Source of the DNA: Lysobacterales bacterium
GTDB taxonomy: Bacteria; Pseudomonadota; Gammaproteobacteria; Xanthomonadales; SZUA-36
Direction of reading: 5' to 3'
NCBI GenBank assembly: GCA_031406105.1
Contig: JANOGQ010000603.1
Span: forward strand, 1-27,191
DNA length: 27,191 nt
Shown: piece by piece, positions 13,670 to 19,566 of the stretch
Numbering within the stretch: position 1 is the stretch's first letter
Layout of the letters: each line of letters opens with the position of its first letter
The notes under the pieces: generated by a model
Told to the model about the DNA's origin: nothing
What the model saw: the letters and a program-made list of their open reading frames with translations, nothing else
The model's database searches: none
Position numbers and translations under genes: made by a program

Positions 13670-14689
13670 TCAGATCAGCTGGCTGCTGCGCAACTCATCC
13701 TTCAGATAGGCGTAGTAAATCGGCGCGGCGATAAGGCCGGGGATGCCAAAGGCGGATTCCAGCACCAGCATAGCCAGCAGCATTTCCCAGGCTTTAGCCC
13801 TGATGTGGCTGCCGATGATGCGGGCATTGAGAAAGTATTCCAGTTTGTGAATGATGATGAGGTAAGCCAGGGATGCAACCGCCACCGCCAGTGAGTGGCT
13901 GAGGCTTACGGTAAAAATGATGGTATTTGAAAGCAGGTTACCGAGGATGGGTAGCAGTCCCGCCACGAAGGTCAGTACGATCAGGGTTTTGGTAAAGGGC
14001 AGATGGATGCCGAACATCGGCAGGACAAAAACGAGATAAATGGCGGTCAGCAGGGTATTGATGGCCGAAATCCAGACTTGCGCAAAAACCACGCGCCGAA
14101 AGGCATCGGCAAGACGGTGTCCGCGGGCGGCAATGCCCGCCGTCAACGGCGTGCTGGATTGGCTGACCACGGCTGATTCGAGTGAGAGCAGTGCGCCAAT
14201 CACCATGCCGATCAGGATTTGCGCCAGCACCCGGCCCAGCCCGGTGCCTGCCACCTGGAATACGTCCGCATTGGTGCGCAACCACTCGACCAGGGCAATG
14301 CGCAACTGCTCGGCATTCGCTGGCATGTTGTCCGTCATCCACCCTGGCATGAGTGCGCGCGATTCTTCGATGATCTCCGCCATCCGCGTGATCAGGGCCG
14401 GCAAGGTTTCATTGCTTTCACGCAACAAAGAGCTGGTCGACGCAGCCAGAAGTGTGATGAGTGCAATCACGGCCGCAGCAATAATGGACACTGCCACGAG
14501 CCTCGGTCCTTCGCCCCATAGCATGCGGGTGCGAAGCACGGGTGTGAGCAAGTTGACCAGCGAATAAACCAGCAAGCCGGCAATCAAGGCCGGCAGCAGG
14601 TGCAGATAAAGCAGCAGTAACAGCGCAACCGCGCTCGCTAGCCAGATGATGATGTCTCTGCGGAGATTGTTGTTTGTATCCATGGCCAT
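13670..14689 (-). CDS. AI-2E family (PerM-like) transporter
   Basis: Multi-pass hydrophobic protein; AFRRVVFAQVWISAINT...LLPILGNL...LEYFLNARIIGSHI...FGIPGLIAAPI. Confidence 0.9.
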   Translation of the reverse strand: MAMDTNNNLRRDIIIWLASAVALLLLLYLHLLPALIAGLLVYSLVNLLTPVLRTRMLWGEGPRLVAVSIIAAAVIALITLLAASTSSLLRESNETLPALITRMAEIIEESRALMPGWMTDNMPANAEQLRIALVEWLRTNADVFQVAGTGLGRVLAQILIGMVIGALLSLESAVVSQSSTPLTAGIAARGHRLADAFRRVVFAQVWISAINTLLTAIYLVFVLPMFGIHLPFTKTLIVLTFVAGLLPILGNLLSNTIIFTVSLSHSLAVAVASLAYLIIIHKLEYFLNARIIGSHIRAKAWEMLLAMLVLESAFGIPGLIAAPIYYAYLKDELRSSQLI

Positions 14690-14797: not shown

Positions 14798-14829
14798 AAA
14801 AACAAAAACCAAACCCGCCGAGGGCGGGT
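14798..14829 (-). terminator. Rho-independent terminator downstream of fasciclin gene
   Basis: ACCCGCC-gag-GGCGGGT stem (14813-14829) next to an A-rich run that reads as a U-tract on the minus strand. Confidence 0.7.
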
Positions 14830-14940
14830 CTGGTGCTTCTTCAATAAAAGAGACTCGTCAACGCGTGAATTACACAGTGCCGCTGAGAGTCAATGGCACG
14901 CGTCTGGGAGACGCGTGCGCAGGGACTGAAGGCAATTGAT

Positions 14941-15438
14941 TTACTCAGGAATCAGGACCGTGTCGATCACATGGATTACGCCGTTGGTGGCGGCAATGTC
15001 GGTTGCTGTTACGGTCGCGCCGTTCACTGAAACCGTGCCGTCTACTACACTGATGGCTACGTCAGCGCCATTTACCGTGGTGGCGGAAGTCAATTTCACT
15101 ACATCAGCAGCCATTACTTTCCCTGCAACTACGTGGTAGGTCAGGATGGCGGTCAGCTGAGCCTTATTTTCAGGCAGCAGCAGTGATTCGACGGTGCCTG
15201 CTGGCAATTTTGCGAAGGCTGCATCGGTTGGTGCAAACACGGTGAACGGTCCTTCGGATTTCAGCGTATCGATCAGGCCTGCTGCGGTCAGCGCTGTGGC
15301 CAGGGTTCCGAAGCTACCTGCTGCTACGGCTGTATCGACGATGTCTTTCTTGTCTCCGTGCATATCGGCAAACAAGTTTGCGGAAACAAGCACGGCCGCG
15401 GAAGCAATCACTGAGAGGGAAATATTTTTGAAGTTCAT
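14941..15438 (-). CDS. Secreted fasciclin (FAS1) domain protein
   Basis: Signal peptide; [13 protein letters not shown] and [15 protein letters not shown]1 motifs. Confidence 0.96.
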
Positions 15439-15508
15439 GACACTGGCTCCTTGGGGTAAGTTTGTTCAGAGGCGCTACTTTAGGTTTCACCCCATGAATT
15501 AGCCGTGA

Positions 15509-15541
15509 ATAATTTGTGTATAACTATACAATTATTGTACT
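15509..15541 (-). promoter_or_regulatory. Putative CarH/LitR operator (11-bp direct repeats) upstream of fasciclin
   Basis: Minus strand AGTACAATAAT-TGTATAGTTAT-ACACAAATTAT; nearly identical to 16868-16900. Confidence 0.7.
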
Positions 15542-15585
15542 TTCGTGCGATTTCGGCTCTGAATTCGATAAAAATCAAGTCCCCC

Positions 15586-15616
15586 AAAAAACAAAACGGG
15601 AGCCAGAGCTCCCGTT
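15586..15616 (-). terminator. Rho-independent terminator downstream of DUF4397 gene
   Basis: AACGGGAGC-caga-GCTCCCGTT (15595-15616) with an A-run on the + strand. Confidence 0.75.
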
Positions 15617-15650
15617 TCGTTCAAAGTTACAAGCAGGTCAGTTCAGCGTC

Positions 15651-16727
15651 TTACTCCAGGGAACAACCCAGGGGAGCAACAAGCCGCGTGGCCGTATACA
15701 TATTGACCGAAGCCTGGCCAATCCGCACTGTAGCCATGGCATCAAAACAGCCCAGGATTTCGAACTCGATGGTACCCACGGCCTCAGTGACAACTTCCAG
15801 TCCTTCCTGGGTTCCGCCACCGGTGTTCAGATACAAGGTGGTTTCTGCAACCAGTCCATCAAAACCGGCTGGGCCGCTGTCAAAGGTGTAGAAGAACGGA
15901 GCACCATGATCGTTGTAGGTGTACCAGGTACCTACCAGGCGATTTTCAGAAGGAACGGGTTGCAGAATAAAGCCCACACCCGAGCCTTCCTGCAAACCCC
16001 ACCAGCCATTGGCGCTGTTGTCTACCGGAGCCCGCAGGGGCAGCATTCCCAGTGGATAAGCCAGGATACCCAGATCCTGGTTGATGCCATCACCCACCGC
16101 AAACAGGGTCAGAATGGCGCCCGCCGGAATGGCTGCAGGCAAGGGATCAATGTAGTTCACCGAGCCATCATTGGAAGCCACTTTCAAATCATAGGTACCG
16201 GCCGGAATTTCCAGATAGCCGCTGTTGGCCTTGTAGGGCACACCCACTAAACCGCCCACCACATCGCCGCCAGCGGTGCGAATGGATACTTCGGTGTCTG
16301 CCAGATCCGCTGCAAAAGGTGCGGCATGCACTACGCGAATTTTTGCATTGCCCGATGCTGGCGCGCTGTTATTGTCAACCAAAGCCGTTAATTCCAGTGG
16401 CTGTGTGCTGCCGTTGCCGATTGCAAACACGCTGTAATCTGTGCCATCGGTCAATACAAACGTCGCAGTCATGGCGGGCGTCGTAGCTCCCACCGGTACG
16501 ATATCAATTTTATAGCTGCCGGCTGGCAACGCTGTATAAGGCACAAAATCAGTGAAACGGACATTCTGAAATGCCGTATTTCCATTGATCAGGATGTTGA
16601 CAGCGGTTCCATTCAGGGTGTCGGCGAAGGGTGCAAGGTGCAACACTGCCACCCGGGCAACAGCAAAGGCTGACTGTGAAGCCATCAGTGCCATCATCGA
16701 AATTGCTACAAATATCAGTTTTTTCAT
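15651..16727 (-). CDS. Secreted DUF4397-domain protein
   Basis: Signal peptide MKKLIFVAI...AFA; two repeats RVAVLHLAP / KIRVVHAAP; start set at ATG 16727 with GGAG RBS. Confidence 0.85.
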   Translation of the reverse strand: MKKLIFVAISMMALMASQSAFAVARVAVLHLAPFADTLNGTAVNILINGNTAFQNVRFTDFVPYTALPAGSYKIDIVPVGATTPAMTATFVLTDGTDYSVFAIGNGSTQPLELTALVDNNSAPASGNAKIRVVHAAPFAADLADTEVSIRTAGGDVVGGLVGVPYKANSGYLEIPAGTYDLKVASNDGSVNYIDPLPAAIPAGAILTLFAVGDGINQDLGILAYPLGMLPLRAPVDNSANGWWGLQEGSGVGFILQPVPSENRLVGTWYTYNDHGAPFFYTFDSGPAGFDGLVAETTLYLNTGGGTQEGLEVVTEAVGTIEFEILGCFDAMATVRIGQASVNMYTATRLVAPLGCSLE

Positions 16728-16867
16728 CACGTACTCCATATCTCTGGTAAAGGGGTCTGGTAAAAATTCAAGGTTCCATGGTGCTTGCTGTTCCGGGCGA
16801 TTCCGCGTCTGCCCTTACTGCTCGAATTGAGCCAGATAAGACTGGAAAGCGCCTGCGTGGATCGAAA

Positions 16868-16965
16868 TGTACAATATTTGTATAGATAATTGCAAGCCTG
16901 ATTGAGCAATTAATTCGCCATATTTGCCAATAAACCAAGTTTGTGTATACTTGTCGTACACTTTT
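16868..16965. promoter_or_regulatory. Putative CarH/LitR operators in the divergent promoter region
   Basis: TGTACAATATT-TGTATAGATAA-TTGCAAGCCTG (16868-16900) and TGTATACTTGT-CGTACACTTTT (16944-16965), both with 11-bp periodicity. Confidence 0.7.
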
Positions 16966-16994
16966 GTTTCCTAAAATCAGGCACATTGATCATC

Positions 16995-17912
16995 ATGCAA
17001 ACGCAACCGGGTGGGGAATATACGGGCGAAAAACTGTACACAATCGGTACTGTTTCCAAATTAACTGGCGTGGGGCCGATTACCCTGCGCGCCTGGGAGC
17101 GGCGTTATGAGCTGATCCAGCCGGTGCGGAAGGAGAGCGGTCACCGGCTCTATACGCGCAAACACATAGACCAGATCATCCGCATCACCGCACTTACTGG
17201 CCAGGGAATCCGCATCAGCCAGATATACCCGGAAATGCTCGAATCGGCCGAGTCTTCTGAGGGCGGCGATCAACAGCCACCAGATCAATGGCGTGATTAT
17301 CTCGACAGTCTGCTTTCTGCCATCGTGAGTTTCGATGAAAACCGCCTGGAAGAGGTATACAACGAGGCGCTGTCCTTATACCCGATTGAATTGGTTACAC
17401 GCAGGCTTTTAAGGCCGCTTTTGATAGAACTCGGATTACGTTGGGTGGCCAATCAAGGCAGTATTGCCGAAGAGCACTTTTTTGCTTTTTACCTGCGCAA
17501 CAAACTGGGTGCACGCTTCCATCATCGCTCGCGTAGCAAAACCGGGCAGCAGCTTCTGCTGGCTGGTCTGCCGGGTGAATTTCATGAAATCGCTTTGCTG
17601 TTGTTTTCACTCGCAGCTAACGAGCGGGGCTACCAGCTCATTTCCCTGGGAGCCAACATGCCACTGAACGAACTGGCCACAGTTGCAAAAGTGACCCGCG
17701 CAGATGCAGTAGTGCTGTCAGGCGCACTCAATCCTGAAAAAAAGAGCTTCGCCTCCGAACTGGCGAACTTAACGGCCAATTGCAAGGTTCCGGTTTTTAT
17801 TGGCGGGCAAGCCTCTGTGCAGGCCTGTGATGTCATCAATAAAGCAGGCGCCATTGCGCTCGGCAACGATCTGGAACTGGGCCTGCAGCGCATCGCTGAG
17901 AAACTGTCTTGA
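16995..17912 (+). CDS. MerR-family regulator with cobalamin-binding domain (CarH/LitR-like photoreceptor)
   Basis: MerR HTH (YTIGTVSKLTGV...LRAWERRY..I.P.R...GHRLY); W-x9-EH (WVANQGSIAEEH); GEFHEI and LGANMP B12 motifs; start set at ATG 16995. Confidence 0.88.
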   Translation: MQTQPGGEYTGEKLYTIGTVSKLTGVGPITLRAWERRYELIQPVRKESGHRLYTRKHIDQIIRITALTGQGIRISQIYPEMLESAESSEGGDQQPPDQWRDYLDSLLSAIVSFDENRLEEVYNEALSLYPIELVTRRLLRPLLIELGLRWVANQGSIAEEHFFAFYLRNKLGARFHHRSRSKTGQQLLLAGLPGEFHEIALLLFSLAANERGYQLISLGANMPLNELATVAKVTRADAVVLSGALNPEKKSFASELANLTANCKVPVFIGGQASVQACDVINKAGAIALGNDLELGLQRIAEKLS

Positions 17913-18036: not shown

Positions 18037-19566
18037 GTGAGCGCACAATCCAACGTGCCCGCCCATTTACCCGGCGTTCCGGGATTACCCCCAGGTGATT
18101 TCCTGGGGCATCCCAAAGCCCTTTGGAAGTTATCCAACATTGAATTGTGGGAGCGCTTTGCTTTCTATGGCATGCGCGCCTTGCTGGCGGTTTATGTTGC
18201 AACCACCTTCTTCGGCCATCTCGGCGATCAGGCCAATTCGCAGGCCAGCCTGGTGTATGGCGGCTACACCGCGCTGGTTTATGCTACCGGCATCATCGGT
18301 GGCTACATCGCCGATCGCGTTTTGGGCTATCAGCGAGCCATCCTGCTCGGCGCAATAGTGATGGCGGCCGGTCTGTTCGTTCTGTTGATGGAAGACCTGC
18401 ACTGGTTCCTGGTGGGCCTGTCACTGGTGGTGGCGGGTAATGGCCTGTTCAAACCCAATATTTCGGTCATGGTCGGCAAGGTCTATACGCAAGCCGATGT
18501 GCGCAGGGATTCCGGCTTTACCGTGTTCTACATGGGCATCAATATGGGTGCCTTTATTGCCCCGTTCATCACCGCTGCCTGGATTGGTACCGCTTTCGGC
18601 ATGAAATACGGCTTCGCGGCGGCTGGCGTGGGCATGATTCTGAGCATGCTGTTCCTGGAATTTGCCAAAGGCTCGCTGGGCCCCATCGGCCAACCGGGGC
18701 AGGGTAAAGACAGCTGGGGGCGCTTCTTCCTCGTTGGCCTGGGTGTGCTGGTGATGGCCTTCGTGGTGTATTTTCTGTTGTCTGAGAGCACCATCCTGGG
18801 TTATTTGCTGGTGATTACGATGTTCGGGCTGGCCACCTACTTCATCTATTCCGGCGTGCGCAGCGGCGACAAAGTGCAGATGCGTCGGTACATCGCCATG
18901 TTGATCCTGTTCCTGGCCAATTCCTGCTTCTGGGCCCTGTTCGAACAGGCGGGTTCGTCGATGAATTTCTTCGCGCGCGAACACACCACGCCTATGTTCG
19001 GCAGCATGGAACTCTGGCAGGCGGGTGGATTTGGTGTATTCCAGTCAGCCAATCCGCTGTTCATCCTGCTCTTTGCACCGATATTTGCTGCGCTTTGGCC
19101 CAAGCTGGAAACCAAGGGTCTCAATCCTTCCATCCCACGTAAATTTTCTTTCGCCCTGGTCCAGGTGGCGCTGGGCTTCTTCCTGCTGGTGTTTGCCATC
19201 AACAACTTCCAGAACGCAGCTGGCCTGGTGCCCTGGATCTTCCTGGGTCTGTGCTATCTGCTGCACACCACTGGCGAGTTGTGCCTCTCACCGATTGGGC
19301 TTTCCATGGTGACCAAACTGGCGGCTGAGAAGGAAACCGGCCTGGCCATGGGCGGCTGGTTCCTGTCCATCGCCATGGCGCAGTATGTAGCGGGCCTGTT
19401 TGCAGCCGTTGCATCAGGTGGAGGCGGGCACGGCACAGAGGCCGGTGCGGGCATTGCCCAATACGCAGAAACCTATATGTTGTTGACCTGGATAGGGCTC
19501 GGTTTTGGCGTGGCCTACTTTTTGGCTGCACCGCTGATCAACAAGCTGATGCATGGGGTGAAGTAA
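18037..19566 (+). CDS. POT/PTR2 family proton-dependent oligopeptide transporter
   Basis: GHPKAL...ELWERFAFYGMRA (ExxERFxYY-like); GNGLFKPNI; FYMGINMGA; GELCLSPIGLS. Confidence 0.96.
   Translation: MSAQSNVPAHLPGVPGLPPGDFLGHPKALWKLSNIELWERFAFYGMRALLAVYVATTFFGHLGDQANSQASLVYGGYTALVYATGIIGGYIADRVLGYQRAILLGAIVMAAGLFVLLMEDLHWFLVGLSLVVAGNGLFKPNISVMVGKVYTQADVRRDSGFTVFYMGINMGAFIAPFITAAWIGTAFGMKYGFAAAGVGMILSMLFLEFAKGSLGPIGQPGQGKDSWGRFFLVGLGVLVMAFVVYFLLSESTILGYLLVITMFGLATYFIYSGVRSGDKVQMRRYIAMLILFLANSCFWALFEQAGSSMNFFAREHTTPMFGSMELWQAGGFGVFQSANPLFILLFAPIFAALWPKLETKGLNPSIPRKFSFALVQVALGFFLLVFAINNFQNAAGLVPWIFLGLCYLLHTTGELCLSPIGLSMVTKLAAEKETGLAMGGWFLSIAMAQYVAGLFAAVASGGGGHGTEAGAGIAQYAETYMLLTWIGLGFGVAYFLAAPLINKLMHGVK

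Follow-up and report, generated by a model that had tools for sequence, protein, structure and literature searches.

Organization of the carH-DUF4397-fasciclin locus

The window analyzed here is a stretch of 27,191 nucleotides (contig JANOGQ010000603.1 of assembly GCA_031406105.1) from an uncultured, metagenome-assembled gammaproteobacterium of the Lysobacterales. It contains a gene for a CarH-like regulator, designated carH, and, divergent to it, the genes for two exported proteins, a DUF4397 protein and a fasciclin. An earlier note on this DNA had proposed that the regulator is a B12 photoreceptor which controls both of them. The features of the locus, among which the operators are predictions, are the following.

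16995 to 17912, plus strand: carH, encoding a protein of 305 amino acids with a MerR-type helix-turn-helix domain, a four-helix bundle and a Rossmann B12-binding domain
16940 to 16974, plus strand: proximal operator over the carH promoter, with the direct repeats GTATAC (16945) and GTACAC (16956), 11 bp apart
16864 to 16898, plus strand: distal operator over the divergent DUF4397 promoter, with the repeats TGTACA (16868-16873), TGTATA (16879-16884) and TTGCAA (16890-16895)
15651 to 16727, minus strand: gene for the exported DUF4397 protein, Sec signal peptide ending in AFA; Pfam DUF4397 (PF14344), 1.8e-33 over two stretches
15504 to 15546, minus strand: fasciclin operator with four 11-bp repeats, AGTACA (15542-15537), TGTATA (15531-15526), ACACAA (15520-15515) and TCACGG (15509-15504)
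14941 to 15438, minus strand: gene for the exported, single-domain fasciclin (FAS1) of 165 amino acids, Sec signal peptide ending in LFA; Pfam PF02469, 2.9e-41
15578 to 15621, minus strand: intrinsic terminator 3' of the DUF4397 gene, a 15-bp GC-rich stem with a 4-nucleotide loop, followed by UUUUGUUUUUU
14808 to 14834, minus strand: terminator-like hairpin 3' of the fasciclin gene found by a scan, a stem of 12 pairs including 8 GC pairs, with a T-run after it

The assembly of the host genome comprises 3.6 Mb in 654 contigs, with a completeness of about 90% and a contamination of 4%, and its nearest relatives are metagenome-assembled genomes of the Lysobacterales/Xanthomonadales type. The sequencing runs containing the locus were only DNA runs, from freshwater sediment, RNA runs not having been searched separately. 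The start codon of carH is the ATG at 16995, as in the closest relative (L001); a listed TTG start at 16941 sits upstream of the predicted carH promoter and its use is unlikely. The DUF4397 open reading frame was listed as 15651-16739 on the minus strand, but a start at 16727 is more likely, having a GGAG site 6 nucleotides upstream and matching the start of the homologues.

The regulator is a CarH-type homolog

In the carH product, the Pfam domains MerR_1 (2e-14), B12-binding_2 (3e-11) and, below its cut-off, B12-binding (2e-5) were detected. The protein aligned over its full length with CarH of Thermus thermophilus (PDB 5C8D/3WHP; 268 residues, E-value of 1.6e-23 for 5C8D), including both B12 subdomains, and its Trp, Glu-His and axial His residues aligned with W131/E141/H142 and H177 of the Thermus protein. 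The Wx9EH motif reads WVANQGSIAEEH, at residue 150, and corresponds to the W131...E141-H142 region, and the recognition helix motif RxWERRY is present as RAWERRY (residues 32-38), which is kept across the clade. Of the Rossmann motif, the protein has the E-x-H element (EFHEIA), both spacings (x41 and x25) and the GG pair, but Ala at the Gly/Pro position and SGA for SxT/V. In CarH proteins, the Wx9EH motif caps the adenosyl group and the His residue of the Rossmann motif serves as lower axial ligand. RxWERRY, Wx9EH, [DE]xH and GG were invariant in an alignment of the 31 full-length members of the CarH clade (31/31).

CarH is told from the B12-independent CarA by an intact Wx9EH motif together with the B12 motif (PMC9304148). 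By this published criterion the regulator is CarH-like, the deviations in its Rossmann motif and the low Pfam B12-binding score being caveats. Judged by its sequence, it is a homolog of CarH and class I LitR. The earlier note had described a CarH-like MerR protein with W-x9-EH and ExH motifs and an Ala in place of the Gly after EI, which the end-to-end alignment to Thermus CarH bears out, and its assignment to the B12 photoreceptors holds in the sense of a predicted CarH-type homolog. The host genome also encodes a PduO-type cobalamin adenosyltransferase (1.9e-61), and therefore the chromophore can be made from cobalamin.

Direct repeats overlap three predicted promoters

In CarH operators, three or four direct repeats of 11 bp (nnnnTnnACAn) follow each other in tandem and overlap the -35 or the -10 region (PMC9304148). 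The sites of the window fit this consensus, and their degenerate repeats (TGTATA, TTGCAA) resemble the published pseudo-repeats. For carH, a promoter with a -35 region TTGCCA (16924-16929) and a -10 region TATACT (16946-16951) separated by a 16-nucleotide spacer was predicted (promoter scan 10/12), and the -10 region falls within the first repeat of the proximal operator. The predicted DUF4397 promoter on the minus strand consists of a -35 region TTGCAA (16895-16890) and a -10 region TACATT (16871-16866), and its 18-nucleotide spacer is occupied by the repeats of the distal operator. A candidate -10 region of the fasciclin gene (TACAAT) is located within the first repeat of the fasciclin operator.

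An operator matrix was built from the sites upstream of carH in related genomes and contained no fasciclin site. With this matrix, the proximal operator scored 31.9, which was the top match genome-wide, the distal operator 30.9 and the core of the fasciclin operator 23.2, and these three sites were the best-scoring matches in the whole assembly. The 20-mer GTACAATAwTTGTATAGwTA is present exactly twice, at 16869-16888 on the plus strand and at 15540-15521 on the minus strand, and none of 100 shuffled sequences matched it even when three mismatches were allowed. The earlier note had reported this 20-mer at both places with its 11-bp periodicity, a further repeat pair at 16944, which corresponds to GTATA (16945) and GTACA (16956), and had taken the repeats as CarH-type. 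The first two statements were confirmed, and the last is supported by the match to the published consensus and by conservation in relatives. Our predictions thus support the view that the repeats are CarH-type 11-bp direct-repeat operators overlapping three promoters.

The hairpin of the terminator downstream of the DUF4397 gene (15590-15621, minus strand), behind which a U-run is found, has a predicted RNA folding energy of -26.5 kcal/mol (z -5.5), and none of 200 shuffled sequences was as stable. An equivalent hairpin is found 3' of the DUF4397 gene in a related locus (L003). Because of this terminator, the fasciclin gene needs its own promoter, and the proposal that the two target genes are separated by a terminator and each have an operator of their own agrees with the hairpin and the three operators.

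Operator sites are conserved in related genomes

For comparison, 38 related loci were collected. In 25 related loci, an equivalent of the proximal site was found 47-96 bp upstream of carH, its first repeat containing a TATAnT -10 region, and the layout of the distal site was found 122-161 bp upstream of carH in at least 16 loci. The consensus of the distal site in the relatives is AATGTACA-N5-TGTAyAG-N-TA-N-T[GT]CAAGC, the ends of which represent, on the opposite strand, a -35 region (TTGCAA/TTGAC) and a -10 region (TACATT) for the divergent gene with an 18-nucleotide spacer. The four-repeat fasciclin site is also kept in front of the fasciclin orthologs of L001 and L003 and of L072/L061, the latter from the same genus.

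In an unbiased scan of the genomes of five relatives with the pattern TGTAYA-N5-TGTAYA, we obtained one to eight matches per genome compared to zero to two with the reversed pattern used as control. Matches were located upstream of folX-folE in three genomes (L047, L048, L053) and upstream of a fasciclin gene (L050), and in L033 an operator-bearing fasciclin-folE operon lies beside carH. The occurrence of the motif at folE, which had been predicted, was therefore found in relatives. In L043 (G001:C7) and L046 (G003:C16), operator-like repeat pairs from the same scan precede a glutathione peroxidase gene and the gene for a diiron hydroxylase resembling MiaE, which are possible regulon members.

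In most relatives (L002, L003, L007-L010, L012-L015, L025, L037, L038) a single conserved TTTGTACAGG is present about 10-25 nucleotides upstream of the DUF4397 start. It equals one operator half-unit, is oriented antisense to DUF4397 just upstream of the ribosome-binding site and is absent from the corresponding region of the window (16728-16770). A role as an additional CarH contact, e.g., for looping or as a roadblock, or as an element of the leader RNA is conceivable.

Fasciclin genes carry the operator only in genomes with carH

To evaluate the fasciclin gene as a target, the matrix was applied to the 300 bp preceding each of 28 fasciclin loci, which came from 61 genomes (19 genera) of the host's family. 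One locus was truncated and had no usable upstream region, leaving 27 assessable loci. The scores were bimodal: 15 of the 27 loci reached at least 17.9, 11 were below 0 and a single one had 13.8. In the host genome, a score of 17.9 was reached at only about 7 positions in 7.2 million. All 15 site-positive loci belonged to CarH-positive genomes, whereas six of the 12 site-less loci were found in CarH-negative genomes, and in most site-positive genomes fasciclin and carH are located on different contigs. As the 61 genomes are related to each other, these counts overstate the independence of the loci; the pattern is clear nevertheless.

The host genome contains exactly two fasciclin genes, and its best operator site outside of the window is located at the start of the second one, on contig C5; 110 bp upstream there is also a weaker repeat pair. 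In this second gene (L039, contig C5, 1756-2587; 201 amino acids) the sequence TGTACA-N5-TATACA spans the start codon, likewise in the orthologue in L033. The second gene is divergent to a gene for phosphatidylserine decarboxylase and lies near a gene for a patatin-like phospholipase. In the window, a gene for an AI-2E-family transporter (13670-14689) adjoins the fasciclin and DUF4397 genes, as it does in L001, and such a transporter gene is also the neighbor of tandem DUF4397 genes in L094/L095, a distant context lacking CarH.

The window fasciclin covers positions 2-123 of the 123 positions of the PF02469 profile. Among fasciclin genes of other bacteria, Synechocystis sll1483 is reportedly induced by singlet oxygen. 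The closest solved bacterial homolog of the window protein is Fdp of Rhodobacter sphaeroides (1W7D, E-value of 2e-44). Fdp is identical to RSP_1409, an adherence-associated periplasmic protein (PMC7561615), and singlet oxygen induces it, as it does cfa-like genes and folE2 (PMC7074977). A fasciclin of Azospirillum under control of RpoE-ChrR affects photo-oxidative stress and flocculation according to work cited in PMC10949492. The role of fasciclins as photo-oxidative-stress proteins is already known, and the new element here is the predicted control by a B12 photoreceptor; our literature search found no report linking CarH to a fasciclin.

DUF4397 genes are associated with carH and with genes of lipid modification

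Besides the host, 24 genomes of the family were found to have a DUF4397 gene, and in 18 of these it is divergent to carH. In relatives, DUF4397 is the first gene of an operon that includes genes for a CMAS/UfaM-like methylase, DUF1295/DUF6134, DUF2878, a lipocalin and an amine oxidase dependent on flavin adenine dinucleotide (FAD), to which DUF1365 and a fatty-acid desaturase are sometimes added. In other members of the clade, carH is followed directly by CMAS-DUF1295. Taken together, comparative genomics across the 61 family genomes supports both DUF4397 and fasciclin as probable members of the CarH regulon, in line with the light-regulon membership that the earlier note had proposed for the two genes.

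In the CarH-negative loci L090 (G046:C1) and L092 (G020:C1), which belong to another genus, genes for an OmpR-type response regulator and a histidine kinase occupy the position of carH, divergent to DUF4397, and the DUF4397 cluster continues with DUF2878, DUF6134 and CMAS. Judged by gene order, this two-component system is apparently the result of a regulator swap around the same effector cluster. That the regulator varies while the effector set stays speaks for a function common to the set, in envelope and lipid stress. One contig assigned to a Nitrosopumilus (archaeal) bin (L021, CAXQNK010000105.1) encodes a CarH with 53% identity to the window protein, followed by genes for CMAS, DUF2878, DUF1295 and a lipocalin; it is probably mis-binned.

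An AlphaFold2 model of the DUF4397 protein (pLDDT, the model's confidence score, 90.8) consists of two beta-sandwich domains and a C-terminal eight-stranded beta-barrel of about 115 amino acids with conserved Cys. In fold searches, residues 20-226 resembled the extracellular domain of PepT2 (Z 15.6), residues 233-350 resembled avidin-like or de novo designed ligand-binding beta-barrels (Z 9-10.7), and clusters of the AlphaFold DB named DUF4397 matched the model (E-value of 1e-13). These searches yielded folds but no function, and our literature search found neither a reported function of DUF4397 nor a link to light. The modeled barrel fold suggests that the protein may bind a small hydrophobic ligand. 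A gene for a POT/PTR2 transporter (18037-19566) is located 125 bp downstream of carH, also in L001, and the DUF4397 sandwiches resemble the ectodomain of mammalian PepT1/PepT2; this is possibly a coincidence.

Searches of the host genome

Apart from the window and the fasciclin gene on contig C5, the matches of the operator scan in the host genome were weak or located inside coding sequences, about 1.7 matches to the strict pattern being expected by chance according to our estimate. A site on contig C380 at 7069 lies inside the coding region of a signal peptide and was rejected as probably due to chance. Operator sites at crt or phr genes were not found in the fragmented host genome. Searches for CMAS, amine oxidase, folE, DUF1295 and lipocalin genes yielded only fragments at contig ends (C502, C359, C626), whose upstream regions could not be assessed. 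A search for a ChrR-type cupin gave one small match to Cupin_7, which is uninformative.

Proposed mode of regulation and alternative explanations

With the gene content, the protein motifs, the conservation of the operators, their overlap with the promoters and the co-occurrence of sites and carH as observed, we consider it probable that an adenosylcobalamin-dependent repressor of the CarH/class I LitR type controls its own promoter and those of DUF4397 and fasciclin as the envelope arm of a protection against light and singlet oxygen. In the dark, a cobalamin-bound oligomer of the regulator would sit on the tandem 11-bp TGTAyA repeats overlapping the -35 and -10 regions of the three promoters. 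Adenosylcobalamin would serve as the light-sensing chromophore, and its photolysis by light would release the repressor, so that carH, DUF4397 and fasciclin would all be switched on. From homology with characterized systems, the regulator is expected to bind cobalamin, to be released in the light and to repress rather than activate, and the two targets to have a protective role. Fasciclin and DUF4397 would belong to a wider CarH regulon of the family, including the CMAS/UfaM-like methylase, DUF1295, DUF2878, the FAD amine oxidase, lipocalin, folX-folE and glutathione peroxidase. Since this wider regulon represents a classic set of photo-oxidative-stress genes, the module is best read as the envelope arm of such a response.

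Several observations weigh against this proposal or limit it. The Pfam B12-binding match of the regulator has 24.7 bits and thus stays below the curated cut-off of 32.1. The Rossmann motif departs from D/ExHx2G/P-x41-SxT/V-x22-27-GG in that Ala replaces Gly and SGA replaces SxT/V, and the His residue following the Trp in Thermus CarH is a Val in the window protein, no member of the clade alignment having a His there. A perfect TnnACA is present in only one of the three repeats of the distal operator. Six CarH-positive genomes carry fasciclin genes without an operator site, and four genomes have a DUF4397 protein but no CarH. Distant DUF4397 homologs (P0097 and P0113, 33-35% identity) are not adjacent to a B12 regulator, and therefore the link to CarH is not universal for the DUF4397 family. 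In the fragmented host genome, CMAS, amine oxidase and photolyase genes were not found or could not be linked to sites.

The regulator might bind the operators without being a light sensor, acting either as a B12-independent, CarA-like repressor or as a sensor of cobalamin availability or of another ligand. Consistent with this are the Gly-to-Ala and Thr/Val-to-Ala changes in the Rossmann motif, the Pfam score and the missing bis-His partner after the Trp, and LitR proteins of classes II-V sense light in another way or via partner proteins (PMC9758184). However, the Wx9EH motif and the axial His, by which CarH is distinguished from CarA (PMC9304148), are intact and invariant in the clade, both B12 subdomains align to Thermus CarH, and an adenosyltransferase is encoded in the host genome. 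The Gly residue is retained in most clade members, Ala being found in about 9 of the 31, including the window protein. Moreover, the regulon of folE, the UfaM-like methylase, gpx and fasciclin matches known light and singlet-oxygen regulons. We therefore regard this explanation as unlikely, although it is the strongest of the alternatives.

The regulator might also act in the manner of MerR activators, binding between the -35 and -10 regions of an over-long spacer and remodeling the promoter upon a signal instead of simply repressing it. Its MerR-family DNA-binding domain and the DUF4397 promoter, with an 18-nucleotide spacer and repeats between and over the -35 and -10 regions, would be compatible with this mode. 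Canonical MerR activators, however, use palindromes and spacers of 19-20 bp, whereas the sites described here are direct repeats as in characterized CarH repressors, and the repeats of the carH and fasciclin promoters are arranged differently, overlapping the -10 region or lying downstream of it. Activation of this type appears still less probable than a regulator blind to light.

The earlier note had suggested, by reference to algal AstaP, that the fasciclin may bind a pigment; as an AstaP-like, water-soluble carotenoid carrier it would make the locus a pigment-based sunscreen module. The AstaP proteins of algae are fasciclin-domain carotenoid binders induced by photo-oxidative stress, and the structure of AstaP (PDB 8C18) does match the window fasciclin. 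This match (E-value of 6e-11) is far weaker than the one to the adhesion-associated Fdp, and no phytoene synthase was found above the cut-off in the 90%-complete host genome, the best match having 22.7 bits. A study of AstaP (bioRxiv 10.1101/2022.12.26.521925) describes it as a neofunctionalized exception among the fasciclins. The AstaP-like function was thus not borne out and is very unlikely, and a carotenoid link was rejected as the leading idea because phytoene synthase was not detected.

That the TGTAyA repeats are read by another factor or merely reflect shared promoter sequence, their nearness to carH being incidental, could explain part of the conservation, since the repeats contain the -10 and -35 hexamers, but is the least credible option in view of the 11-bp periodicity with a CarH-like TnnACA core, the restriction of fasciclin sites to CarH-positive genomes, the two-component system that takes the place of carH beside the DUF4397 cluster in CarH-negative genomes and the low number of matches to the reversed pattern.

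Relation to known systems and implications

B12 photoreceptors of the CarH type are known mainly for switching carotenoid genes. The regulator encoded in the window shares the three-part architecture, the RxWERRY and Wx9EH motifs and the axial His with CarH and class I LitR proteins of Thermus thermophilus (PDB 5C8D, 5C8E, 3WHP), Bacillus megaterium and Myxococcales, and its predicted targets are likewise its own gene and a divergent one, with three or four tandem 11-bp TnnACA-type repeats over the -35 and -10 regions. It differs from the known examples by the Ala in place of the motif Gly, by the lack of a His after the Trp and by its host, a gammaproteobacterium of freshwater sediment. Furthermore, the predicted targets are not carotenoid genes but genes for exported fasciclin and DUF4397 proteins, joined in relatives by lipid-modification and folate genes.

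LitR regulons elsewhere include ufaM, folE and phrB, and those of the class II/III LitR proteins of Pseudomonas and Burkholderia (PplR/PmlR) resemble the present one in containing ufaM/CMAS-like genes, an FAD oxidoreductase, folE/folX and hypothetical envelope proteins (PMC9758184). In contrast to the window regulator with its two B12 subdomains, class II/III LitR proteins lack the Rossmann B12 domain and rely on LOV partners or other chemistry. The RpoE-ChrR regulon of Rhodobacter sphaeroides and Azospirillum brasilense is similar as well, as it includes a close fasciclin homolog (Fdp/RSP_1409), cfa-like genes and folE2. RpoE-ChrR is an extracytoplasmic function (ECF) sigma/anti-sigma pair answering to singlet oxygen, whereas in the window the same effectors appear to be wired to a direct B12 photoreceptor. 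We know of no DUF4397 member reported in the RpoE-ChrR regulon. With green-algal AstaP, the window protein has the fasciclin fold in common, and AstaP itself is induced by photo-oxidative stress; the two are only distantly related in sequence, and the phytoene synthase search detected no carotenoid pathway in the host.

A more far-reaching idea, which we consider possible but doubtful, is that fasciclin and the DUF4397-barrel protein are dedicated photoprotection parts of the periplasm or outer envelope. They would handle a hydrophobic ligand, e.g., oxidized lipids or furan or cyclopropane lipids produced by the co-regulated CMAS, DUF1295 and amine-oxidase enzymes, and would have been rewired in each lineage to the light or singlet-oxygen sensor available, be it CarH, RpoE-ChrR in alphaproteobacteria or the two-component system in CarH-less relatives. 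If true, DUF4397 would have its first function, and the repeated appearance of fasciclins in photo-oxidative-stress regulons would be explained.

The predicted regulon places a familiar switch with a textbook operator architecture on little-understood exported envelope proteins instead of pigment genes, and would extend the known light and singlet-oxygen gene set by fasciclin and DUF4397-barrel proteins. The comparative signal, with operators at unlinked fasciclin genes in many genera and only together with carH, is strong enough to place both proteins in a probable light regulon. It provides a testable handle on DUF4397, bears on the long-noted and unexplained induction of bacterial fasciclins by singlet oxygen, and points to an exchange of regulators (CarH, two-component system, RpoE-ChrR) for a conserved set of effectors. 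The compact unit of three promoters would also lend itself to use as a green-light-responsive expression module in gammaproteobacteria.

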